A stretch of DNA of 63,752 bases, the filler included, from Reclinomonas americana ATCC 50394 (Eukaryota): NCBI GenBank assembly GCA_048213135.1. It is 18 parts of 18 records of this genome, joined end to end, with 100 filler letters (N's around TTAATTAATTAA, not from the genome) between each part and the next. Parts side by side here need not be neighbours in the genome. Positions count along the whole stretch, not along the records: positions 43,066 to 44,816 come from AFZH01017305.1; positions 44,917 to 46,570 come from AFZH01017306.1; positions 46,671 to 48,480 come from AFZH01017307.1; positions 48,581 to 50,514 come from AFZH01017308.1; 14 more parts are not named here. The stretch is one strand, 5' to 3'. Made by a program: the position numbers and the translations under genes. Shown one piece after another: positions 43,162 to 63,752 of this stretch. The stretch's first letter is position 1; each line of letters begins with the position of its first letter. The notes beneath the pieces were generated by a model. That model was not told the DNA's origin and made no database searches. It saw nothing but the letters and a program-made list of their open reading frames with translations.

Positions 43162-44235
43162 ATGGCCTCCGCCCTCCAACACAAATCCTTTGTGGGACAC
43201 AAATACGCAGTGCTTTGTGTCGCTGTTGCTCCCGATGGCCAGCACCTGGCGAGCGGCGGCCATGACTGCGATGTTCGTGTATGGTCCTCCATGGCCAGTG
43301 GCGCAGAGGTGCGACGGCTGGAGAGTCACGCTAGGTGCGTAACATGCGTCGCATTCACGCCCAATGGGACGTACGTGGTGAGTGGGAGCCGGGACCAGAC
43401 TGTGCGCGTGTGGTCACTGGCGAGTGGAGGGCAAGTGCGACGGTATATGGTGGGGCATGCAGACGTGCACTCGGTTGCTGGTGCTCCCAATGGCAAGTAC
43501 GTGGCGAGCGGCAGCTGTGACGGCACTGTTCGTGTGTTGGCCTTGGCACGTGAGTATTGTGCCGAGGTGCGACGATTGAAGGGACCGGCTGACGTAACAT
43601 GCATCGCTTTCACTCCCGACGGCAGGCACTTGGTAAGTGGGGACTTGGACAAGACAGTGCGTGTGTGGTCGCTCGCGAGTGGAGCGCAAGTCCAACGGTT
43701 CAAGGGGCATACTCGCACCGTGTACTCTGTTGCTGTCACTCCCGACGCACAGCATGTGGTGAGTGGGAGTAGCGACAACACAGTGCGAGTGTGGTCACTG
43801 GTGACCGGGGAGGAGGTGCGACGGATGGAGGGACACACTTACGGGGTGAATGCCGTCGCCGTCACTCCCGCCGGTCAACACGTCGTGAGCGGGGGCGACG
43901 ACAGGACGGTGCGTGTGTGGTCACTGGCGAGTGGCGAGGAGGTGCGACGGATGGAGGGACACACTGGCACTGTGACATCTGTCGCCGTCACTCCTGATGG
44001 TCAGCACATTGTGAGTGGGTGTTGGGACAAGACAGTAAGAATGTGGTCCTCTCCGTGTGCCCACGCTCGGTGGGAGCTCGACAGTGCACGACGGGCCGCG
44101 CAGGCCGTGCGGGAGATGCAACGAGAGGATGCGGATTCACGGTGCCTGCCGGAGATGGTACTGCGGTGTTTCATGGTGGAGGAGGCCGAAGTGGTGGTAT
44201 TCCGCGGCAGCACGAATCCAGATTTGCATTGGTGA
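43162..44235 (+). CDS. Intronless 7-blade WD40 protein with conserved C-terminal tail, array gene 1
   Basis: Seven ~42-aa GH...VAVTPDG.H.VSG..D.TVRVW repeats. Tail ELDSARRA.QAVREMQ...RCLPEMVLRCFMVEEAEVVVFR...PDLHW*. Confidence 0.93.
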   Translation: MASALQHKSFVGHKYAVLCVAVAPDGQHLASGGHDCDVRVWSSMASGAEVRRLESHARCVTCVAFTPNGTYVVSGSRDQTVRVWSLASGGQVRRYMVGHADVHSVAGAPNGKYVASGSCDGTVRVLALAREYCAEVRRLKGPADVTCIAFTPDGRHLVSGDLDKTVRVWSLASGAQVQRFKGHTRTVYSVAVTPDAQHVVSGSSDNTVRVWSLVTGEEVRRMEGHTYGVNAVAVTPAGQHVVSGGDDRTVRVWSLASGEEVRRMEGHTGTVTSVAVTPDGQHIVSGCWDKTVRMWSSPCAHARWELDSARRAAQAVREMQREDADSRCLPEMVLRCFMVEEAEVVVFRGSTNPDLHW

Positions 44236-44241
44236 GGCGGT

Positions 44242-44388
44242 ATGAAAGTGAAAGGCCGCTTTGTTGAGTTGCAGCTGGAAGGTGCAGATTCGCGGTGCCT
44301 GCCGGAGATGGTACTGCGGTGCTTCATGGTGGAGGAGGCCGAAGTGGTGGTGTTCCACAGCCATGCGAATCCTGATCTGCGCTGGTGA
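44242..44388 (+). other. Tail-only duplicate of gene 1's 3' end; 48-codon mini-ORF in frame with gene 1
   Basis: MKVKGRFVELQLEGADSRCLPEMVLRCFMVEEAEVVVFHSHANPDLRW*, offset 153 nt from the gene 1 tail. Confidence 0.7.
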
Positions 44389-44543
44389 GGCGGTACAAAA
44401 GTGAAAGGCGCCTTCTTGACAGCCTTGTTCTTTCCTTCCGTGTCAACAATCCACAGAATGCGCGTGGCGACTTAATCATTAAGTGTCCCACCAATCGCTT
44501 TTCATATCATCTCTCACGCATTGCGCTCTCCTTTCCACCCCCC

Positions 44544-44990
44544 ATGACCTCCACCACTCCCCCCACTCACCTTCAAAAGACCTTTGTGGGGCACACGGGC
44601 ACAGTGTGCTCTCTCTCCATCACTCCCGACGGCCAGCTGCTGGCGAGCGGCAGTCACGACCACACTGTTCGTGTATGGTCCATGGCCAGTGGCGCAGAGG
44701 TGCAGCGATTGGAGGGACACACTGGGTGGGTGAGGTGCGTTGCATTCACTCCTGATGGCCGGCACGTGGTGAGCGGCGGCAGCGACAAGACAGTGCGAGT
44801 GTGGTGCGACAGTTCGNNNNNNNNNNNNNNNNNNNNNNNNNNNNNNNNNNNNNNNNNNNNTTAATTAATTAANNNNNNNNNNNNNNNNNNNNNNNNNNNN
44901 NNNNNNNNNNNNNNNNTGCGTTGCTTCATGGTGGAGGAGGCCGAGGTCGTCTGCTTCCGCTGTAGCACGGATCCCGATCTGCGCTGGTGA
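44544..44990 (+). CDS. WD40 + tail array gene 2 (interior lost in gap)
   Basis: MTSTTPPTHLQKTFVGHTG... runs to the gap at 44817. RCFMVEEAEVVCFRCSTDPDLRW* follows the gap. The two halves may belong to different copies. Confidence 0.75.
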
Positions 44991-45131
44991 GGCTGTATGA
45001 AAGTGAAAGCCACCTGCTTGATTCTTCCGCTTCTGCACACGCTCTCCAGCAACAACAGAACTGCGTCACGCATGACTTGTCCCGTCACTCACTTGTCTCT
45101 TTTCTCAAAGCGCTCCTCTCTTCCCGTTCTC

Positions 45132-46199
45132 ATGGCCTCCACTACCCATCACAAGTCCCTCGCGGGGCACACTGCCGCAGTGCTCTGCGTCGCCGTCGCT
45201 CCCAACGGTGAATGCATTGTCAGCGGCAGTAGTGACACGACTGTGCGAGTGTGGTCCATGGCCAGTGGCGCCGAGGTGCAGCGATTGGAGGGACACACTG
45301 CGTGGGTGCGTTCAGTCACCGTCACTCCCGACGGCCAGCATGTGGTGAGTGGGAGTGATGACAAGACTGTGCGAGTGTGGTCGCTGGCCAGTGGCGAGGA
45401 GGTGCGACAGTTCGAGGGGCATGCTGGCTTTGTGTACTCTGTTGCTGTCACTCGCGATGCGCAGCACGTGGTAAGCGGGAGTGAGGATTTGACGGTGCGA
45501 GTGTGGTTACTGTCGACGGGGGAGGAGGTGCGACGATTCGAAGGGCACACTGGTGATGTGTGGTCTGTCGCCGTGACTCCCGACGGCGAACACCTGGTGA
45601 GTGGAAGTGCTGACAAGACAGTGCGTGTGTGGTCACTGGTGAGTGGCGAGGAGGTGCGACGACTGGAGGGACACGGCGGGTGGGTGTTGTCGGTCACCGT
45701 CACTCCTGATGGTCAACACATTGTGAGCGGCAGTGCTGACAGCACTGTGCGAGTGTGGTCCATGGAGACTGGAGAGCAAGTGCGACAGATGGAGGGGCAT
45801 CGTGGGTGGGTGCACTGTCTTGCCGTGACTCCCAACAGCCAGCTCATTGTGAGTGGGAGTCCCGATATGACCGTGCGAGTGTGGTCGCTGGCGAGTGGAG
45901 AAGAGGTGCGGCGGTTGGAGGGACCCATCGGAGGAGTGGACTCTGTCGCCACTGCACTCAATGGCCAGCATGTAATCGGTGGCGGCGTTGATGGAAATGT
46001 ACATGTGTGGTCCTCGACACACGCCAGTGCCTGTGACGAACTCGACAGTGGACGACGGGCCATGCAGGCTGTGCGGGAAATGCAGCCGGAGGATGCGGAT
46101 TCACGGTGCCTGCCGGAGATGGTGCTGCGGTGTTTCATGGTGGAGGAGGCTGAAGTCGTGGTATTCCGCTGTAGCTCGAATCCTGATCTGCACTGGTGA
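45132..46199 (+). CDS. Intronless 7-blade WD40 + tail, array gene 3
   Basis: MASTTHHKSLAGH..., seven repeats, tail ...LPEMVLRCF...PDLHW*. Confidence 0.93.
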   Translation: MASTTHHKSLAGHTAAVLCVAVAPNGECIVSGSSDTTVRVWSMASGAEVQRLEGHTAWVRSVTVTPDGQHVVSGSDDKTVRVWSLASGEEVRQFEGHAGFVYSVAVTRDAQHVVSGSEDLTVRVWLLSTGEEVRRFEGHTGDVWSVAVTPDGEHLVSGSADKTVRVWSLVSGEEVRRLEGHGGWVLSVTVTPDGQHIVSGSADSTVRVWSMETGEQVRQMEGHRGWVHCLAVTPNSQLIVSGSPDMTVRVWSLASGEEVRRLEGPIGGVDSVATALNGQHVIGGGVDGNVHVWSSTHASACDELDSGRRAMQAVREMQPEDADSRCLPEMVLRCFMVEEAEVVVFRCSSNPDLHW

Positions 46200-46364
46200 G
46201 GCAGCATGAAAGTAAAAGCCACCTGCTTGAGTTGCAGCCTTGTTCTCCCTGTCTGTGCCATCAACCGACACACAGAAGTGTGGGTGACTTCATCAGCCGT
46301 GGAAGAACAGAACGACGAAAGTCGGTATTGTCAGGGTGTCCTTCTCCTCACTTGCTCCCGTTAC

Positions 46365-46918
46365 ATGTCATTCGCCAACCTCGCACTCCTCCACAGGTCT
46401 CTGGATGGACACAGTGGCCCAGTGACGAGTGTCGCTGTCGCACCCAATGGTCACCTCTGTGTGAGCGGAAGCGAGGACAAGGCGGTGCGAGTGTGGTCCA
46501 TGGCCAGTGGCGCCGAGGTGCGGCGGTTCGAGGGACATGCTGACTGGGTCAGCTCTGTCGCCGTCACTTTNNNNNNNNNNNNNNNNNNNNNNNNNNNNNN
46601 NNNNNNNNNNNNNNTTAATTAATTAANNNNNNNNNNNNNNNNNNNNNNNNNNNNNNNNNNNNNNNNNNNNCTGCACTCAATGGCCAGCATGTAATCGGTG
46701 GCGGCGTTGATGGAAATGTACATGTGTGGTCCTCGACACACGCCAGTGCCTGTGACGAACTCGACAGTGGACGACGAGCCTTGCAGGCCGTGCACGAGAT
46801 GCAGCCGGAGGATGCGGATTCACGGTGCCTGCCGGAGATGGTGCTGCGGTGCTTCGTAGTGGAGGAGGCCGAGGTCGTGGTATTCCGCTGCAGCACGAAT
46901 CCTGATCTGCATTGGTAA
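46365..46918 (+). CDS. WD40 + tail array gene 4 (interior lost in gap)
   Basis: MSFANLALLHRSLDGH... runs to the gap. The post-gap last blade is nearly identical to that of gene 3. Tail ends PDLHW*. Confidence 0.75.
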
Positions 46919-47085
46919 GGCGGCATGCAAGTAAAAGCCACCTACTTGACAGCCTTGTTCTTTCCTTCCGTGCTCTCTATCAACCAATACACAGAAGCGT
47001 GGGTGACTTCTGCAGCCGTGCGAGAGCGACGTCGACGACAGATGGTGTCAGGGTGTCCTTCTCTTCTCCCTTCGTTCGTTGCCCC

Positions 47086-48159
47086 ATGTCATTCGCCGCC
47101 CTCGCACTCCCACACAAGTGTCTGGTTGGACACACTGCCGCAGTGTACTGTGTCGCTGTCACACCAGACGGTCACTACATCGTGAGCGGAAGCGACGACA
47201 AGGCGGTGCGAGTGTGGTCACTGGCGAGTGGCGAGGAGGTGCGACGGTTGGAGGGACACGCCGATGCGGTGATGTCTGTCGTCGTCACCCCAGACGGAGA
47301 GTTCATCGTGACTGGGAGCTATGACACGACAGTGCGAGTGTGGTCACTGGCGAGTGGCGAGGAGGTGAGACTTTTGCGGGGGCACAGCGGCCCGGTGATG
47401 TCTGTCACCGTCACCCCAGATGGAGAGTTCATCGTGAGCGGGGGCCATGACCACACTGTGCGAGTGTGGTCGCTGGCTAGTGGTGATGAGGTGCGACGGT
47501 TGGAGGGGCACACTGGGTGGGTGATGTCTGTCGCCGTTACTCCAGATGGTCAGCATATCGTGAGTGCTAGCGACACTGTGCGGGTGTGGTCAATCGCCAC
47601 TGGTCAGGAAGTGCGACAGCTGGGGGAAGGACACCCTCAGTCGCTAATGTCGGTCACCGTCACTCCCGATGGTCGTCACATTGTGAGTGGAGATGTGGAC
47701 GGGATACTTCGAATGTGGTCTATGGAGAGTGGTGAAGTGGTGCGACAGATGGAGGGGCACTTGAGCTGGGTGCACTGTGTTGCCGTGACTCCCGACGAGC
47801 GACACGTCGTGAGTGGGAGTTTTGACAAAACTGTGCATGTGTGGTCGCTGGCGAGTGGTGAGGAGGTGCGGCGGTTGGAGGGACACGCGCAAGCGGTCTC
47901 TGCCGTTGCTATCACCACCGATGGTCGACACATTGTGAGTGGCTGCAATGACGGCGTTGTGCATGTGTGGTCGTCGACCTACGCCTGTGCCTGTGACGAA
48001 CTCGACAGTGCACGACGGGCCGTGCTGGCCGTGCACGACATGCAACAAGAGGATGCGGATTCGCGGTGCCTGCCGGAGATGGTGCTGCGGTGCTTCATGG
48101 TGGAGGAGGCCGAGGTCGTGTGCTTCCGCTGCCTTGCTGACCACGATCTGCATTGGTAA
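47086..48159 (+). CDS. Intronless 7-blade WD40 + tail, array gene 5
   Basis: MSFAALALPHKCLVGH..., seven repeats, tail ...ADHDLHW*. Confidence 0.93.
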   Translation: MSFAALALPHKCLVGHTAAVYCVAVTPDGHYIVSGSDDKAVRVWSLASGEEVRRLEGHADAVMSVVVTPDGEFIVTGSYDTTVRVWSLASGEEVRLLRGHSGPVMSVTVTPDGEFIVSGGHDHTVRVWSLASGDEVRRLEGHTGWVMSVAVTPDGQHIVSASDTVRVWSIATGQEVRQLGEGHPQSLMSVTVTPDGRHIVSGDVDGILRMWSMESGEVVRQMEGHLSWVHCVAVTPDERHVVSGSFDKTVHVWSLASGEEVRRLEGHAQAVSAVAITTDGRHIVSGCNDGVVHVWSSTYACACDELDSARRAVLAVHDMQQEDADSRCLPEMVLRCFMVEEAEVVCFRCLADHDLHW

Positions 48160-48331
48160 GGCGGCATGCAAGTAAAAGCCGCCTTCTTGACAGCCTTATT
48201 CTTCCCTTCTGTGCTCTCTATCAACCAATACACAGAAGCGTGGGTGACTTCTGTAGCCGTGCGAGAGCGACGTCGACGACAGATGGTGTCAGGGTGTCCT
48301 TCTCGGCCCTTCTCTCTTCGTTCGTTGCCCC

Positions 48332-49280
48332 ATGTCATTCGCCGACCTCGCATTCCCCCACAGGTCTCTGGTTGGACACACTGCCGCAGTGTACTGTGTC
48401 GCTGTCACACCCGACGGTCACTACGTCTTGAGCGGAAGCGACGACAAGGTGGCGCGAGTGTGGTCACTGACGAGTGGCGANNNNNNNNNNNNNNNNNNNN
48501 NNNNNNNNNNNNNNNNNNNNNNNNTTAATTAATTAANNNNNNNNNNNNNNNNNNNNNNNNNNNNNNNNNNNNNNNNNNNNGTGGTCGCTGGCTAGTGGTG
48601 ATGAGGTGCGACGGTTGGAGGGGCACACTGGGTGGGTGATGTCTGTCGCCGTTACTCCGAACGGTCAGCATATTGTGAGTGCTGACGACACTGTGCGGGT
48701 GTGGTCAGTCGCCACTGGTCAGGAAGTGCGACTGCTGGGGGAAGGACGCACTCAGTCGCTAATGTCGGTCACCGTCACTCCCGATAGTCGTCACATTGTG
48801 AGTGGAGATCTTGATGGGAACGGGATACTTCGAGTGTGGTCACTGGCGACCGGGGAGGAGATGCGACGGATGGAGGGGCACGTGAGCTGGGTGCACCGTG
48901 TTGCCGTGACTCCCGACGGGCGACACGTCGTGAGCGGCAGTAATGACAAGACGGTGCGTCTGTGGTCACTGGCGAGTGGAGAAGAGGTGCGGCGGTTGGA
49001 GGGACACGCGCAAGCGGTCTCTGCCGTTGCCATCACCCCCGATGGTCGACACATTGTGAGTGGTTGCAATGACGGCGTTGTGTACGTGTGGTTGTCGACC
49101 TACGCCTGTGCCTGTGACGAACTCGACAGTGCACGACGGGCCGCGCAGGCCGTGCACGAGATGCAACGAGAGGATGCGCATTCACGGTGCCTGCCGGAGA
49201 TGGTGCTGCGGTGCTTCATTGTGGAGGAGGCCGAGGTCGTGTGCTTCCGCTGCCGCACGGATCCCGATCTGCATTGGTGA
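48332..49280 (+). CDS. WD40 + tail array gene 6 (gap inside)
   Basis: MSFADLAFPHRSLVGH..., gap 48481-48580, four more blades, then tail ...TDPDLHW*. Close paralog of gene 5. Confidence 0.8.
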
Positions 49281-52183: not shown

Positions 52184-55100
52184 CAAGGATGGTCGTCAAG
52201 GATCAAGGAGCCCATTCTCTTTCCCCTTCTCTCCTTGTCTTTCCTTTTCACGTATCTCAACACGCTTTCTCTCCTTCTGTCTGCCTCTGTTGCTCTCTCT
52301 TTCTCTCCGCATCTCAATCTGTCTCTCTGTATCGGACTGTCAACCACACTTGCGCTGCTGCAAATGACCTCTTTACTTATCTGTGATTATGTAATTCTCC
52401 TCTGCCTCTCTCATTAAACCTTTTCCTCCCTTTCCTCGTGCATCTCACTCACGCGCTTTCACCTGTGCCTCAGAAGAACTGCGGAGCATTCGCCAGCTTC
52501 GCGAGGTCGAAGTGATCAAGCGATGCGGCATTATGCAAAAGGGCGACGCGTCGACGGGCGGCAAGGAGCAGATGAAGGTTTGACTCGCCTCCACCTTGTC
52601 CTTGTCAAAAAGCCGTGTGAACTCACTGGAGAGTCTGGCAGACATTCAAGCTCGGCGACATGCTCCGTCTGCGCAAACTGCTGCCGCATGCGCGCAATCC
52701 CGCCGACGATGTGATTATGGTGGAGCGTGATGGGATTCTGTTCCGCATGGGAGCCAAGTACGTGTGCATTCCGGGAGATCCCTCAAAGACGGTGAGTGGG
52801 TGTGGAAGATCCTATCCTTTCTTGTTCTCTCCTTATATCTCTCTCTCTTGTTCTCTCTCTTGTTCTCTCTCTTGCATCTCTCGCTCTTTTTCTCTCCCTC
52901 TCTTTCTCTCTCTGTTTCTTTCTCTCTCTCTCTCTCTTCCACTTCTCCTTGCTGCTCACCGAGTAACTTGCAGCCTCTCAACAAGCATCCGCTGTGGGAA
53001 GCCTTGCTGGTTTGTATGCGGTGATCCTCCATTGAACGAAACCGCGACGTTACTAATTGTAGAAATGAATCGCAGAGTGGACCGCGCCTCACGGACACAG
53101 CGTCGGAGGTGACCTCTCAAGTTGCGAAGAGATTCATGTGGTCTGGCGTTGTCAAGAGACTCACTGTGCATCGTTCAAACAGCTGAGTGAGAGTCGATCG
53201 CCACGATACCCGACACCGGAGCATCCGATGTACGGCGACTCACCGATGGCGCCAGGGTGAGTGATGAATGGGTTAGAAAGCAAAAAAAGAGAATACTTGG
53301 TGCTGTGAACTTGCGCTATAATCATGCACCTCTTGCAAATAGGAGAGAGAGAGAGAAAGCGAGAGAGAGAGAGAACAAGAGCCATTTTTCGTTCTCTTGT
53401 CGTTCTTCTAATGCTTCCTTCAACTCTTCATCGGCAATGCTTTCTTTTGTGGGAGAATTGAGTCTCGCAAGCAATTGCTCGCTCCATCTCTCGCCACGCA
53501 GTCTCCGCCTCCCTTGCTCTTCACTCGTTTATCTCGCTCTGTTGTCTCATCTTTGCTCTCTTGTACTTCATTCCACTTCAACAAATTTTCCACTCTTGCT
53601 ATACGATTCTCTCTCTCTCCGTGCCCGTCTTCTCCAAACTCGCGCCCTCTCCCTCTTCATCTCGCTCTCCCCCTTCTCTTCCCCTTCTCTTCCGCTACAC
53701 TTCCCACTTCTCTTCCCCCTTCTCTTCCCCCTTCTCTCCCCTCTTTTGCTTTCACTTTCCCATCTCTCCCCATCTCTCCCCCTTCACTTTCCTCTTCTTT
53801 TTTCCCCTTCTCTTCTCCCTTTGCTCTCCTCCTTCGCCTCTTCTCCTTCTCTTCCCCCTTCTCTTCCTCACTTCCCCCTTTCCCCTTCTCTTCCTCCTTC
53901 CCCTTCTCACACCCCTTTCCCCTTCATCCCACAGCGCCCCACTCTCCCCCAAGCGCTCTCCGCGCCACTCCTTCTCCTCCTCCTCCATTGGCCCGTCGCA
54001 CCTGGACGAGCACTTTGGCCGCCAGACGCACTCGGCCATGCACCGGCCACCGCCGCTGGAGCGCCTGGACAGTCTGCGTGTACTGAGCCCGCTGGTGAGA
54101 CTCTATTCAATGATGCCCTGCATTCACCGTTTCCCCCCCATCTCACTCTCGTGCTGCAGGGCTCACCACCCATGGGCTCCCCGCGCTCTCGTGCTGCAGC
54201 CGCGGCGGCAGCTGCAGCAGCGGCTGCTGGCGGCAACCAGTCCATGACCGGGGCTCCGTCTGTGGCCTCGGCCGCCGCCGCCGCCCCCACTGCGGCGCCT
54301 GGCATGCCACCGTCAGTGTACGTGCCACCACCGTTGCGTACATCGGCCAGCCAGCCGGGCGGCATTGGTCTGCACTCCTCCACATCGCCGAGAAGATATC
54401 CGCTCTCGCCGGGTCGCGCACCATCGGAGCACGGTGGTGCAGGCACACCGTCGTCGACTGTGCGCTTTGCCGATCAGCCCAACCTGGTGCGCACGCCGCG
54501 CAGAGCAGGCACACCGCAGGGGCCGTCGCTGCAGGTCGAGATGAAACGTAAGTGCTGCACACACACGTGTCTCTGCTTTGCTCGTGCTCACCATGTGAGC
54601 GTTTTGTGCAGCGCACCCCAATCTGCGGTACTTCACCAAGTCGGACGAGCCGGTGATGGTGCCAGACGTGCAGTTCTCGGTGAGCTACTCTGGAGGAGAG
54701 AGAGAGCTTTTGTTCACCGCAATCACCTCACTTGCTGTGTGCAGACAAAGCCGCTGGCCACCACCGATGCCACGGTCAAGATCCTTATGATTGGCAACTC
54801 GTCAGGTACACTCGCAGCGTCTCTGTTGGTGAATCAACTCGCCCCCCTCACACACATTCGCAGTCGGCAAGAGTGTCTTTTGCCAAAAGGTGTCGCAAAA
54901 CGACGACTCGTACGATCCTTCCAGTCTCCGCGCCACCGTTGGCGGTTCGTGCCACTTGATCGTAATGCGTTGCAGTGAGAGAGTTCACCATTGTGTGCCT
55001 TGCAGTGGAGATGTACAGCCTCTACGCCAAGTTCCCCAATCGCAACGTGAAGATTTTGGTTTGTCATCTCGTCGGTGTCACATTCTGCGAGCTTTGGAAC

Positions 55101-55727
55101 TCACCTATCTTCGCATGCAGCTAATGGACACGCAAGGCTCCGACAACACCATGACGGTCATCTCCAGCTACTTCCGGAGGGCGCACGCGTACATACTGAT
55201 GTGCGACGTCACGGATCGACAGTCGTTTGAGGTGAGACACCAGAAAGCCAGTTTTGTACCCTCCTTCTTCCATCATCTCATAGTCTCGCAGAACCTGGAG
55301 CGCTGGCACGATCAGGCCCAGTCCGCCGGTCGGTCGCGCAATTCCTACACGCTGTTGTGCGACACGGCAATTGCCAACAAGGTCGACAAGGACATTCGAC
55401 AGTATCGCGTGCGACAACGCGATGCCTTCCAGCTGGAGAGCAAGTATGATTTGCAAGTGTTGCGTTGGATGGTGGTGTTGTTGTTGAATGCGTGATGATG
55501 TGACGACTGACTGCGTGTGTGGGATCCCCAGCATTCCGTGCTCAGCGCTGTCAATGAGCAGCGAGACGCTGCGCCAGATTCTGGCGCGCACCGTCGTGTC
55601 GGTGCTGCGCCGCATGGACGACTTGTACTATGATGCCGACAAGGCACAGTCGATTGCCGAGTGGGACGTGATTGGCATTCAGCAGCAGCGCGCGCAGATT
55701 GAGAAGAAGGCCTGCTGCAATTTGTAG
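49912..55727 (+). CDS. Coiled-coil (UVR-like) protein, apparently fused through a Pro/Ser-rich linker to a C-terminal Rab-like GTPase with a CCNL prenylation motif (multi-exon, two gaps)
   Basis: N-part: FEQEQDFLEAQKA...FSREVINMRSILDRLIKQKQYAQAE. Exons from 52473 to 55727 splice in frame to G1 GNSSVGKS, G2 ATVGVEM, G3 LMDTQGS, SYFRRAHAYILMCDVTDRQSFENLERW, G4 ANKVD, G5 CSAL, and KKACCNL*. The link across the 52002 gap is inferred. Confidence 0.65.
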
Positions 55728-58736: not shown

Positions 58737-59067
58737 ACAGTGACACACACACACTCTCTCTCTCTTAGACTCCCAAACGCGTGTGCACAGACAGAGAAAG
58801 AGAGATGCTGTGTGTGTAAGAGAGACAAGAGAGACACACAATGCACTTTCCCCTTCTCTCCCTCCCTCCTCTCTCTCTCTCCCGCCTCCATTCACTCAAC
58901 TTCTTGAACACCTCATAGATCTGCTCCTCGCGCGTGAAGAACGACAGGTTTCCGACATACAACGTGCGAGAGGCGGCCAATGCGCGATGGTACTCGTCGG
59001 GCGACATGCCACTGTGCCTATCAAAGTAGGGCGTGGCGCGACGCACAGGTCGATAGAGAGAGCTCAT
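56173..59067 (-). CDS. NCBP2: Nuclear cap-binding protein subunit 2 (CBP20) with an acidic/basic C-terminal extension
   Basis: Spliced: [52 protein letters not shown]...[40 protein letters not shown], the hallmark CBP20 sequence. Confidence 0.95.
58344..58846. repeat. Degenerate ~130-bp minisatellite (3-4 units) in NCBP2 intron 1
   Basis: acagtgattgatcagatgctgctctctc...ttagactccca recurs at ~58406, ~58537 and ~58679, with microsatellite-variable interiors. Confidence 0.85.
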
Positions 59068-59941: not shown

Positions 59942-61003
59942 TTACCAACGCGTCTCGGGATCAATGCCGAATCGAAAGAGCACGGCTTCGGCCTCCTCCA
60001 CCAAGAAGCACCGCAGCACCATCTCCGGCAGGCACCGCGCTTCGAATCCATCTTCCGCTCCTCCTCCATTCTGCATCTCCCGCACGGCTTGCAGAGCCCG
60101 TCGCGCACTGTCGAGCTCACGGCCGACTAGCGCGTACAGCGAGGACCACACTCGCACAATGCCGTCGGCCCCACCGCTCACAATGTGCTGGCCGTCGGGA
60201 GAGACGGCGACAGAGGTCGCACGACCTTCTTGTCCCTCCAGCCGTCGCACCTCCACTCCGCTCGCCAGCGACCACACTCGCACTGTCATGTCTTCACTCC
60301 CACTCACAACAAAGTGGCCATTGGGAGTGAGTGCCACCGAACGCACCCTGCCAGTGTGTCCTTCCAGTCGTCGCACCTCGTCTCCACTCGCCAGTGACCA
60401 CACACGCACTGTCGTGTCATCACCTCCACTCACAACGTGTTGACCGTCGGGAGTGACGGCCACAGAAAGAGCCCTGCCCAAGTGACCGTACACGAGTCGC
60501 ACCTCCTCTCCGCTCGCCAGCGACCAAACGATCACTGTCCCATCACGGTTACCAGTCACGACGTGCAGACCATCGGGTGTGACGGCGATAGCCAGCACCA
60601 CTCCAGAATAGACCCCCAGCTGACGCATTTTTTCACCGCCACACACTTGCACAGAGCTGCCACCTGTGACAAACCGACCGTCGCGTGTGGCGGCGACGCA
60701 CCACACCAATCCGAAGTGCTCCCCGAACCGTTGAATTTCCTCTCCACCCGCCAGTGACCACACTCGCACCGTCTTGTCAATGCCACCACTCGCAATGTGC
60801 TGTCCATCGGGAGTGACAGCGACGCACATCACGCAGCCAGCGTGTCCTTCCAGCCCTTGCACTTCTTCTCCACTCGCCAGGGACCACACGCGCACTGTTC
60901 TATCACCACTTCCGCTCACCACATGCTCACCGTCGGGAGTGAAGGCCACAGACATCACCGCACCCGCGTGTCCTTTCATGCACTTGGGTTGGAGAGACGA
61001 CAT
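59942..61003 (-). CDS. Intronless 7-blade WD40 + tail, second (inverted) cluster
   Basis: MSSLQPKCMKGH..., seven repeats, tail ELDSARRALQAVREMQ...RCLPEMVLRCFLVEEAEAVLFRFGIDPETRW*. Confidence 0.92.
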   Translation of the reverse strand: MSSLQPKCMKGHAGAVMSVAFTPDGEHVVSGSGDRTVRVWSLASGEEVQGLEGHAGCVMCVAVTPDGQHIASGGIDKTVRVWSLAGGEEIQRFGEHFGLVWCVAATRDGRFVTGGSSVQVCGGEKMRQLGVYSGVVLAIAVTPDGLHVVTGNRDGTVIVWSLASGEEVRLVYGHLGRALSVAVTPDGQHVVSGGDDTTVRVWSLASGDEVRRLEGHTGRVRSVALTPNGHFVVSGSEDMTVRVWSLASGVEVRRLEGQEGRATSVAVSPDGQHIVSGGADGIVRVWSSLYALVGRELDSARRALQAVREMQNGGGAEDGFEARCLPEMVLRCFLVEEAEAVLFRFGIDPETRW

Positions 61004-61177
61004 TGTCAACACAGAGGGATGGTGGAAGGTGAGCAGAATGACGGCTGAAGATGGAACGACCGGAAAGAAGTGTGCGGGACGGACACGGCATCCATTGACG
61101 TTGTCTCAAGGTGCCGGCCGTGTTTCTCGACGCGAGCGACAAGAACAAGAACAAGACTCTCGTACCAGTTGCCTTTA

Positions 61178-61207
61178 TTACCAACGCGTCTCGGGGTAAC
61201 AGCCGAA
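61178..61207 (-). CDS. 3' end of a further WD40 + tail gene truncated by a gap
   Basis: Encodes FGCYPETRW*, matching the FGIDPETRW* end of the downstream gene. Spacer is 174 nt. Confidence 0.75.
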   Translation of the reverse strand, partial: FGCYPETRW

Positions 61208-61307
61208 NNNNNNNNNNNNNNNNNNNNNNNNNNNNNNNNNNNNNNNNNNNNTTAATTAATTAANNNNNNNNNNNNNNNNNNNNNNNNNNNNNNNNNNNNN
61301 NNNNNNN

Positions 61308-63752
61308 GCACCATCTGAGACACCCGTTTGTTCTCGGCCTCAGACATTGAAGAAGTGGCGAACAGAGCGGTGGTAAACAGGGTCTCGACCACCACATTGC
61401 CAGCATCCATCGTGTCCTTGTCGAGCACACCGCGTGCAGCGACAACAACTCGTTGCAACGCGTTGGCGCCGAACAGCAGTCCGTACACGCCCAAGTCGGA
61501 AGCCAGTGCACGCAGTTCGTCCTCGTTGCGTGCTGGCAAGTCGGCGGCGACGGCGGCTTGTAAATTGAAAAGGTGGGCAATGGCAGAGCTGATGTTGGTG
61601 GGCGGCGGCGTCGTAGTCTGTACCAAGGCACGAAGCCGTTGGCCAGCAACTTGGAACTCGGCCTGCAAGCCCACCGAGTCTTGTACGGCGAAAGTAGTCG
61701 CAGTGGCATTGGTGATATTGTCTCCAGTTACCTGGGCACCAGCTGTTGCAGTTGCTCTTGCCGCTGCCATCGCCGTTTTTGCGCGAGTCGTCGCACAAGA
61801 ACACAGAGACTCGAACTCGGCGAGCATGGCCGCCAGCGAGCCAGTGCCGGCGCCATCACCGCCGGAGCCGGCTGCCACGGACTGCATGACCGAGTCAGTC
61901 TCGGCGGCACCTGCGGCTGGCACTTGCGCATACGACGCCTTGACAACTTCTGTCATCACACATGCTTCCACGCGTCGCAAATTAAAATCGTCTTCGGCGC
62001 CTGCACGAACGAGTGATATGAGCATATCATTGATCACACGCAATTCTCCCCAAGTCCGCGCGCAACAAACCGACTGCTGAGAGGAATGGCCGACAGAGCC
62101 GCACTGCAAGTGCCGTCATTCCAGCCGCCTCCTCCACATTGATATCGTTGAGTCGGCGAAGCAGCAAGGCAGTGGGGGGCACTGGAGAGAACGAAATGCG
62201 CGACAAAGGCAGATTCCACGGCTGGTCGGGATTGAGACCAGCAACTTGGCGGTCATCGGCAGCGGTCGCGGGAATGCACGTGGATCCGGATTGTTTGATG
62301 TAAACTGACAGTCGTCGAACGCCGTCGAAAATCTGGCGGCACAACGACGCTTCGATGTCCTCCAGCGTCCGTGCGTCGTCCACGGCAGAATGTCGCAAAT
62401 CACCCTCTCTCGCGTCGGCAATCTTCGCCAGCCGCGATTGCAAGTCAACGGCTTCTGGCATGCTGCGACAAAACGATCGAGTAAGTGCGCGAGCATCTCT
62501 CTCTCANNNNNNNNNNNNNNNNNNNNNNNNNNNNNNNNNNNNNNNNNNNNTTAATTAATTAANNNNNNNNNNNNNNNNNNNNNNNNNNNNNNNNNNNNNN
62601 NNNNNNGCCCACATCGAAATAATGCGTCGCGCTTGAATGCTCACCTCGCGAGGCGACAAACGAGAGCGACTGCAGTACGCGCGAGGCACCGCCCTGCTCT
62701 CGGAATTGGATCGAAATGCAACGCACGAGTGGTTCCTGTGCAGCAGACGAATGAGTCTGGCGTGAACACTGAGCACGCGTCACACCAGTACGCAACAGTT
62801 TGGAACTCGGCGAGCAGCGGATACAAGGCCGCCAAACAACGCTCGACAACAAGTGCATTCTGCATGGACAGGGCACGCGACACGATGCCCATGTTGTCGT
62901 TGAGGAACAGCTGTTGCGCGGTGTCGAGGAAGTTGCCCGCGCCACTGCAGTGCACAGCTGCAGTGTCAGATGATGATGGAATAGTGACGTGAGGCACACG
63001 AAAACACACCCAATGATTTTCAGTGCATCCACTTGCTCCTCCACACGGGGAGACATGCAGCGACAGCAGGCAGTGTGCAGCTCCATCATGCTGTTCTCCT
63101 TGAACCACCTGCACGGACGGGAAAGAACAGTCGGACGCTGACTCTGGATTCCACAACGAGGAAAAAAAAAGATGCGCAACGAGCTCAGCACGCGCTCGGC
63201 GGCATTCACGAGCACACCGTCCAGATCGCCCAGTTGCGTGCACATGTCGATGATTCGGAAACGGTACTCGATGGAAACGTGCAGCAGATCACTGCGGCGA
63301 AACGCGTCAACTCGCAGTGTCGAATGCCGACGATGAGAACAACCAAACGCCGCAACTTGCGCTCCAGCAACGAGTTGACGCACGGGTTGCCATTGAATCG
63401 AAGCACTCGAATGTGTTCCCGCACATTGCTGTGCGGGAAGAAATGGAGGGTCACATCTCCACTCTCACTCAATCAGCTATCATTCATCTCTCGCTCACCG
63501 TGCCAACTTGAACAGGTCGTCGAGGCTGCGCACAGCGGCGCATCATCTCCAAGTGCCGCAGCGAGGGGCACACGGCGACGCCTTGTCCAATGTCGTCCAG
63601 CTCCACCGTGTGGATCTTGTTGTTGTTCAGATACAAGTGGCTGAGCGAGCGGAAGCCAGAAAACCAGCGCCATCTGCAATCGGCACGATTAAGAACAACG
63701 ACCAAGGAGGATTGGGAGGAGAAAGAGTGCACGCAACGGCAGGACGTTGATC
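61308..63752 (-). CDS. Partial multi-exon leucine-rich-repeat protein followed by helical (ARM-like) regions
   Basis: FSGFRSLSHLYLNNNKIHTV, CPSLRHLEM, and the LRR cap IRVLRFNGNPC. Further exons lie at ~63300-62780 and 62461-61308. Both ends are outside the readable sequence, and joining across the 62507 gap is inferred. Confidence 0.6.

Follow-up and report, generated by a model that had tools for sequence, protein, structure and literature searches.

The window analyzed here, 63,752 nucleotides of the jakobid Reclinomonas americana ATCC 50394 (assembly GCA_048213135.1, 18 parts joined end to end), contains at 43162–49280 on the plus strand an array of six head-to-tail intronless WD40 genes, and a second locus of the same family lies 11 kb from the array (59942–61207, minus strand). 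These genes may well constitute a lineage-restricted family encoding small cytosolic adaptors that are built of two parts and have a diversifying face. The tail, modeled as a helical hairpin, would quite likely attach all copies to the same host partner, and the top face of the propeller would probably bind a target protein that differs between copies, with selection favoring new faces. The initial annotation of this DNA had proposed a diversifying receptor system; the variable face stands, whereas the conserved, lineage-restricted tail points to an adaptor instead of a signaling receptor. We favor an adaptor with a constant partner because the tail is both the most conserved part of the proteins and restricted to the lineage.

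Variable positions on the propeller top face

Each of the four complete genes (G1, G3, and G5 in the array, G8 at the second locus) encodes seven Pfam PF00400 WD40 stretches, and the 126-nt repeat period was confirmed in them. All four open reading frames (ORFs) consist of a propeller and a tail of 62–67 residues, and nothing else. AlphaFold modeling of G3 placed the propeller at residues 6–294, with predicted local distance difference test (pLDDT) values mostly above 90, followed by a low-confidence tail. The propeller model has 28 strands, and its best solved match is the WD40 domain of the bacterial protein PkwA (5yzv; template modeling score 0.97 on the target, 41% identity). With the modeled propeller beginning near residue 6, a signal peptide would not fit in front of it, and a cytosolic or nuclear location is therefore probable.

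The repeats had initially been described as highly similar; the period holds, but the similarity is moderate. Blades within a gene share on average 66% DNA and 57% protein identity (95 pairs; DNA span 53–83%), the same blade in different genes 69% and 61% (77 pairs), and the remaining pairs 65% and 56% (458 pairs), with the highest identities found between same-position blades of sister genes. Internal identity by the six-blade rule is 0.44–0.52 in all four complete genes. PMC5587647 calls WD40 proteins moderately repetitive at 0.4–0.7 and highly repetitive at 0.7 or above, and the array genes belong to the moderately repetitive seven-bladed class. Like members of that class in bacteria, fungi, and protists, they carry variable hotspots on a conserved frame, as described in that source; unlike the bacterial members, they form a eukaryotic tandem family with a lineage-restricted tail.

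We numbered the 42-residue repeat as in PMC1805685 and compared 36 blades, excluding the partial blades 2 and 7 of G4 (kept in the gene-level set) and dropping inserts beyond the 42 residues. The variable motifs listed in the initial annotation were all found in the blades (11 of 11 triplets after GH and 7 of 7 SG-x-x-D pairs). The four positions of highest entropy are 25, 7, 9, and 27, which is exactly the set of codons that PMC1805685 gives as positively selected on the top face of HET-E-type repeats (7, 9, 25, and 27); the chance of this coincidence is 9e-6. In the AlphaFold model these positions lie in the d-a loop, at the first residue of strand a, and in the b-c turn. The variation is clustered on one face of the propeller, the top face, at HET-E-type positions. 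Residue combinations at the hot positions are distinct in 33 of the 36 blades.

Selection was evaluated with codon models written for this analysis. At the blade level, comparison of M2a with M1a gave twice the log-likelihood difference (2dL) as 31, with positions 5, 7, 9, and 25 in the selected class. With fixed classes at the gene level (seven genes), the ratio of nonsynonymous to synonymous substitution rates (dN/dS) was 2.1 at the four hot sites (p = 3e-6), 0.26 in the scaffold, and 0.21 in the tail; with empirical codon frequencies the hot-site value was 1.8 (p = 2e-4). The test statistic of 13.7 obtained from the data was not reached in any of 82 simulations (maximum 7.4), in which the hot sites were neutral and conversion between blades ranged up to heavy. 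At the hot sites the proportion of nonsynonymous differences (pN) exceeded that of synonymous differences (pS) in 17 of 21 gene pairs, with one tie and three lower, the pairs not being independent.

The dN/dS above 1 implied by the initial annotation for the variable sites was thus borne out by standard codon models and weakened once double substitutions were allowed, and several results of this kind weigh against a diversifying face. Double substitutions with empirical frequencies gave a joint hot-site dN/dS of 1.3–1.6 (p = 0.13–0.15) in all three gene sets, and across the multi-hit fits as a whole the ratio came down to 1.3–1.7. With per-position rates, the joint multi-hit test gave p = 0.058 for genes and p = 0.003 for blades. 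The youngest pair, G5 and G6, shows no excess at all (3/47 nonsynonymous at hot sites versus 22.5/179 synonymous), and variable hotspots are a general trait of repetitive WD40 proteins according to PMC5587647. Under the same multi-hit models, position 25 retained a dN/dS of ∼3 (likelihood-ratio test statistic, LRT, 12.6–14.5) and was significant in all four per-position fits, position 9 was nominally significant (LRT 5.3–6.4), and positions 7 and 27 were indistinguishable from 1. The two close pairs do not confirm the high double-hit rate of these fits, since adjacent differences are not in excess there (8 versus 5.4 expected, and 1 versus 0.75). Purifying selection clearly acts on the scaffold and the tail, with constraint lifted on the top face; diversifying selection on that face is likely, resting on few genes.

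The same data bear on a birth-and-death expansion without diversifying selection, in which an adaptor gene multiplies through easy repeat recombination while core and tail are conserved and the loops drift. Loss of gene-level joint significance under the multi-hit model, the G5–G6 comparison, and the general variability of hotspots are all in keeping with such drift, as are the apparent deleted-gene remnant behind G1 (Table 1) and the fast turnover of repetitive propellers reported in bioRxiv 2022.03.13.484165. We nevertheless consider it unlikely, given the behavior of position 25, the failure of every neutral simulation to match the data, the prevalence of pN over pS among the non-independent gene pairs, and the intactness of all four complete genes.

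The conserved tail and its possible partner

The array genes share a tail of ∼62 residues. A tail profile search of 1.84 billion representatives returned two proteins, P0005 (E = 5.6e-17) and P0006 (E = 4e-8). P0005 is a fragmentary ORF of R. americana derived from an expressed sequence tag and identical to none of the window's genes, which shows that a jakobid transcribes the family. P0006 is an unnamed stand-alone ORF of 381 aa with a very diverged, non-repetitive propeller. A third relative, P0056, came from the full-length search and has a diverged tail (15.8 bits versus a maximum of 7.6 in 5000 shuffles) behind a 36%-repetitive propeller. All three have the architecture of the array proteins and a homologous tail, but the propellers of P0006 and P0056 are far more diverged. 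As the tail is kept behind these diverged propellers, it is, to judge by the sequences compared, older than the present repetitive propeller. Seven tail residues are invariant across nine sequences, most of them in the second helix of a predicted two-helix hairpin.

Other searches added little. A word-indexed search with the tail region and an ESM Atlas search with the tail gave nothing new, alignment of the tail to longer proteins (8000 candidates) returned only P0005, and tail patterns gave 93 matches in metagenome and 335 in viral contigs, none of them confirmed. Against PDB sequences the best tail match had E = 1.0 in one search, and another returned none; Foldseek with the tail model found none at E ≤ 0.001, and VIA-align with the low-confidence hairpin reached at best Z = 7.8, to generic hairpins, with none at Z ≥ 8 among 48161; from so uncertain a model, these fold results do not argue against an F-box. 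P0006 gave one weak, propeller-only match in metagenome contigs (L001). Prediction of a two-copy complex of the tail, with the alignment not used, scored 0.01. The family is probably restricted to jakobids.

Conceivably, though this is doubtful, the shared partner would be a Skp1/Elongin-C-like subunit of a cullin-RING ubiquitin ligase, making the array a panel of substrate receptors that mark varied, perhaps foreign, proteins for degradation. Like WD40-SOCS-box (WSB1/2), VHL-box, and F-box-WD40 cullin-RING receptors, the array proteins join a propeller, the substrate-binding part in those receptors, to a short C-terminal helical module, and they resemble them in having a constant and a variable end. 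With the BC-box and cullin-box consensus taken from PMC3355856, a Cul2-box-type pattern can be read in 8 of 9 tails; this pattern is weak and also occurs in 5.5–6.6% of shuffled tails and in 2 of 127 other proteins. In P0056 the same second helix reads as an exact BC-box. Excavate cullins are highly divergent, according to PMC2785787. In the ESM Atlas, both look-alike rows of P0006 listed as eukaryotic correspond to clusters of WD40-SOCS-box proteins, one at 0.86 (48% of its members having SOCS) and one at 0.84, below the 0.9 mark and therefore leads only.

Several findings count against the ligase step, and the low confidence of the hairpin model (pLDDT 71, predicted template modeling score 0.41) weighs against a docking tail in general. 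Pfam searches with isolated tails returned no family, no SOCS box, and no F-box at E up to 10. WDxR, the motif of DDB1-CUL4 WD40 receptors (DCAF/DWD), is present in none of the four complete proteins. By the consensus from PMC3355856, a strict BC-box occurs in none of six window tails and in one of three outside relatives, none of the eight tails with the Cul2 pattern has a BC-box 8–23 residues upstream of it, and the Cul5 LP-hydrophobic-P motif is missing from all nine tails; the proline is absent in P0056. PMC2785787 moreover describes Elongin-Cul2/Cul5 complexes as animal-specific. Unlike SOCS-box and VHL-box receptors, the array proteins have no canonical pair of BC-box and cullin-box, and their tail has a long first helix, predicted from sequence, that lies outside those boxes. 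On this evidence the tail is by definition neither a SOCS box nor a VHL box; it may nonetheless work like one. Expanded, fast-evolving F-box and BTB families are known from nematodes.

The closest parallel for the variable face is found in the WD-repeat domains of the Podospora anserina NWD/HNWD NOD-like receptors (NLRs) HET-E and HET-D, as described in PMC1805685. Both have 42-residue repeats in which positions 7, 9, 25, and 27 are the most variable, many residue combinations, and some exchange between repeats; dN/dS at these positions is elevated in the fungal repeats and, under standard codon models, in the array. In contrast to HNWD genes, those of the array are small and in tandem, encode one seven-bladed propeller each without a NACHT or HET domain, end in an unrelated conserved tail, and have blades that mostly track gene duplication; repeat identity is 57% at the protein level, compared with up to 100% in HNWD. 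The initial annotation had correctly noted the lack of NACHT, which extends to all four complete ORFs, and had referred to concerted evolution in the fungal genes; near-identical repeats within and between genes are not found in the array. These comparisons bear on the idea of detached NLR-type sensors, whose propellers would sense non-self and signal in trans via the tail to a separate NACHT or effector protein, or would serve as a pool of donor repeats. The shared variable positions and the presence of mosaic tracts speak for such sensors. They seem improbable, however, as no NACHT or effector domain was found in any copy or among 11 neighboring ORFs scanned (a partial sample of the window), the repeats are not homogenized as in HNWD, and retention of the tail behind unrelated propellers would be unexpected of a donor pool.

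Array architecture and family growth

The array comprises, as initially annotated, at least six head-to-tail intronless genes of ∼1.07 kb on the plus strand (Table 1). G1, G3, and G5 each form one complete ORF (355–357 aa), and G2, G4, and G6 are each interrupted by one assembly gap. The intergenic spacers are mutually homologous and 141–172 nt long, and no splice-acceptor AG directly precedes the ATGs of the array genes. Two of the five spacers, 44991–45131 (141 nt) and 46200–46364 (165 nt), keep the frame and contain no stop codon, so that read-through of the preceding stop would fuse neighbors; this is probably due to chance. The mini-ORF past the G1 stop repeats the second tail half at a 153-nt period and, by eye, differs from G1 in the conserved core by synonymous changes. 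Either a gene was deleted here and left this remnant, which would point to loss of a propeller, or the ORF yields a product consisting of the tail alone. At the contig edge (44806–44816), the 5′ part of G2 jumps between repeat positions, probably an assembly artifact.

Table 1. WD40 family members and associated features, by position in the window.
Feature	Coordinates	Strand	Description
G1 (P0003)	43162..44235	+	complete, intronless, 357 aa; seven WD40 blades and tail
Tail-only duplicate	44242..44388	+	in-frame 48-aa mini-ORF past the G1 stop; second half of tail
G2, 5′ part	44544..44816	+	two blades, up to contig edge
G2, 3′ part	44917..44990	+	tail end and stop, past gap
G3 (P0002)	45132..46199	+	complete, 355 aa; tail at 46011–46196
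Spacer example	46200..46364	+	shared motif right after stop; pyrimidine-rich leader before next ATG
G4, 5′ part	46365..46570	+	blade 1 nearest G5/G6 (80–81%)
G4, 3′ part	46671..46918	+	first 106 nt identical to G3, then G5-type spacer
G5 (P0001)	47086..48159	+	complete, 357 aa
G6, 5′ part	48332..48480	+	blade 1; 94% identity to G5
G6, 3′ part	48581..49280	+	blades 4–7 and tail; 92% identity to G5; G1-like tract starting blade 6
G8 (P0004)	59942..61003	-	complete, 353 aa; more diverged member, second locus
G7	61178..61207	-	last codons and stop of another copy upstream of G8, cut by gap

The mosaic segments pointed out in the initial annotation were recovered, with 46671–46800 matching 45951–46080 at 123 of 129 nt and 46912–47230 matching 48153–48480 at 301 of 319 nt. 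The 3′ end of G4 equals G3 over 106 nt, whereas the spacer that follows on the same contig shares 96% identity with the one after G5 and only 80% with the one after G3. The start of blade 6 in G6 resembles blade 6 of G1 and not that of G5 (triplet test, p = 3e-4); altogether 7 of 104 triplets fell below the Bonferroni level, five of them involving G4, whose halves a gap separates. Two within-gene blade pairs group together with support of 99–100. Repeat-shuffling as initially proposed is supported in the form of these few crossover or conversion tracts and not beyond them: pairwise homoplasy index (PHI) tests for recombination were negative in all four runs (p = 0.84–1.0), and the blades mostly group by position, tracking gene duplication. 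The family has grown by duplication in tandem, accompanied now and then by unequal crossover, conversion, or deletion. Its evolution is of the birth-and-death kind with some exchange, unlike the wholesale homogenization of HNWD repeats.

Could the units instead be terminal cassettes used alternatively by a single, larger spliced gene, with first exons upstream or in a gap? The intron-rich genome, the gap just upstream of G1, and the pyrimidine tracts before each unit would allow for this; yet start and stop codons are present in every unit, with the ATG always at the same place and without an AG directly before it, and the relatives P0006 and P0056, comparable in length, are each encoded by an ORF that stands alone, all of which makes such cassettes very improbable.

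The gaps within the array had been taken as hints of collapsed copies. Every one of the 17 gaps in the window is, however, the same 100-nt placeholder, and the array holds three where 1.6 are expected; extra copies may exist. Despite these gaps, the repeat jump in G2, and segments 92–95% identical, an assembly or haplotype artifact showing one or two genes several times, as the initial annotation allowed for, is hardly credible, because two or three different copies follow one another on each of three contigs (among them the most alike pair, G5 and G6, 94% identical and on one contig), the complete proteins are 60–67% identical to G3, and the six 5′ ends are distinct.

Blade relatives, genomic surroundings, and implications

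Among 126 fetched proteins, the blades closest to those of the array belong to bacterial-type metagenome proteins (75.6 and 73.0 bits, versus 73.0–82.6 for the window's own blades), and Gemmatales genomes contain near relatives (64–70% identity) of one of these. In one Gemmatales genome, a repetitive WD40 family with an array-like blade occupies eight or more loci (L002–L007, L013, L029, and L031). The blade sequence may have a bacterial source, which would fit the lack of introns, or its likeness to bacterial proteins may have arisen by convergence on the WD40 consensus. Retrocopying was rejected as the origin of the intronless genes, as no poly(A) follows their stops. A more elaborate proposal, and an unlikely one, is that a large repertoire for variable recognition arose when a bacterium-derived blade was set on an older BC-box-like tail that would plug into one of the divergent cullin ligases of excavates, providing an NLR-independent, ubiquitin-based defense against viruses or intracellular bacteria.

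The contrast drawn in the initial annotation between intronless genes and an intron-rich genome agrees with the spliced neighbors, from which it is judged: a cap-binding-protein (CBP20) exon at 58903–59067 has its continuation ∼980 nt away, and frame switches recur in the gene at 61300–63752. The second locus is flanked by this CBP20 gene and by a spliced gene that appears leucine-rich-repeat-like by eye. Elsewhere in the window, an open exon of 3.6 kb (6969–10559, minus strand) with many fibronectin-III-like repeats is part of a very long spliced gene (∼1.5–20.7 kb) that looks like a surface protein. Two gene copies on the plus strand (23071–23766 and 27002–28124) have near-identical exon text, each followed by cysteine-rich EGF-like exons; Pfam gave no match for this duplicated gene. 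Ras/Rab-family GTPase exons (54833–55495, plus strand; Pfam Ras, E = 9e-6) lie directly downstream of exons encoding low-complexity sequence.

Repetitive WD40 proteins with variable hotspots are already known, as PMC1805685, PMC5587647, and bioRxiv 2022.03.13.484165 describe. In the main texts of the open-access literature we found no description of a stand-alone tandem WD40 repertoire with this tail. How foreign proteins are recognized by free-living protists, as opposed to animals, fungi, and plants, is poorly known, and the array offers a small, expressible handle on the question: a top face that probably diversifies at the positions used by fungal NLRs, without the NLR engine and with a constant tail of its own. 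Without selection, the genes would amount to a lineage-specific WD40 expansion of the ordinary sort whose tail is an orphan. With a cullin adaptor as partner, they would represent a new type of excavate cullin-RING receptor, and the defense proposal, if true, would place an innate system in one of the deepest eukaryotic lineages.

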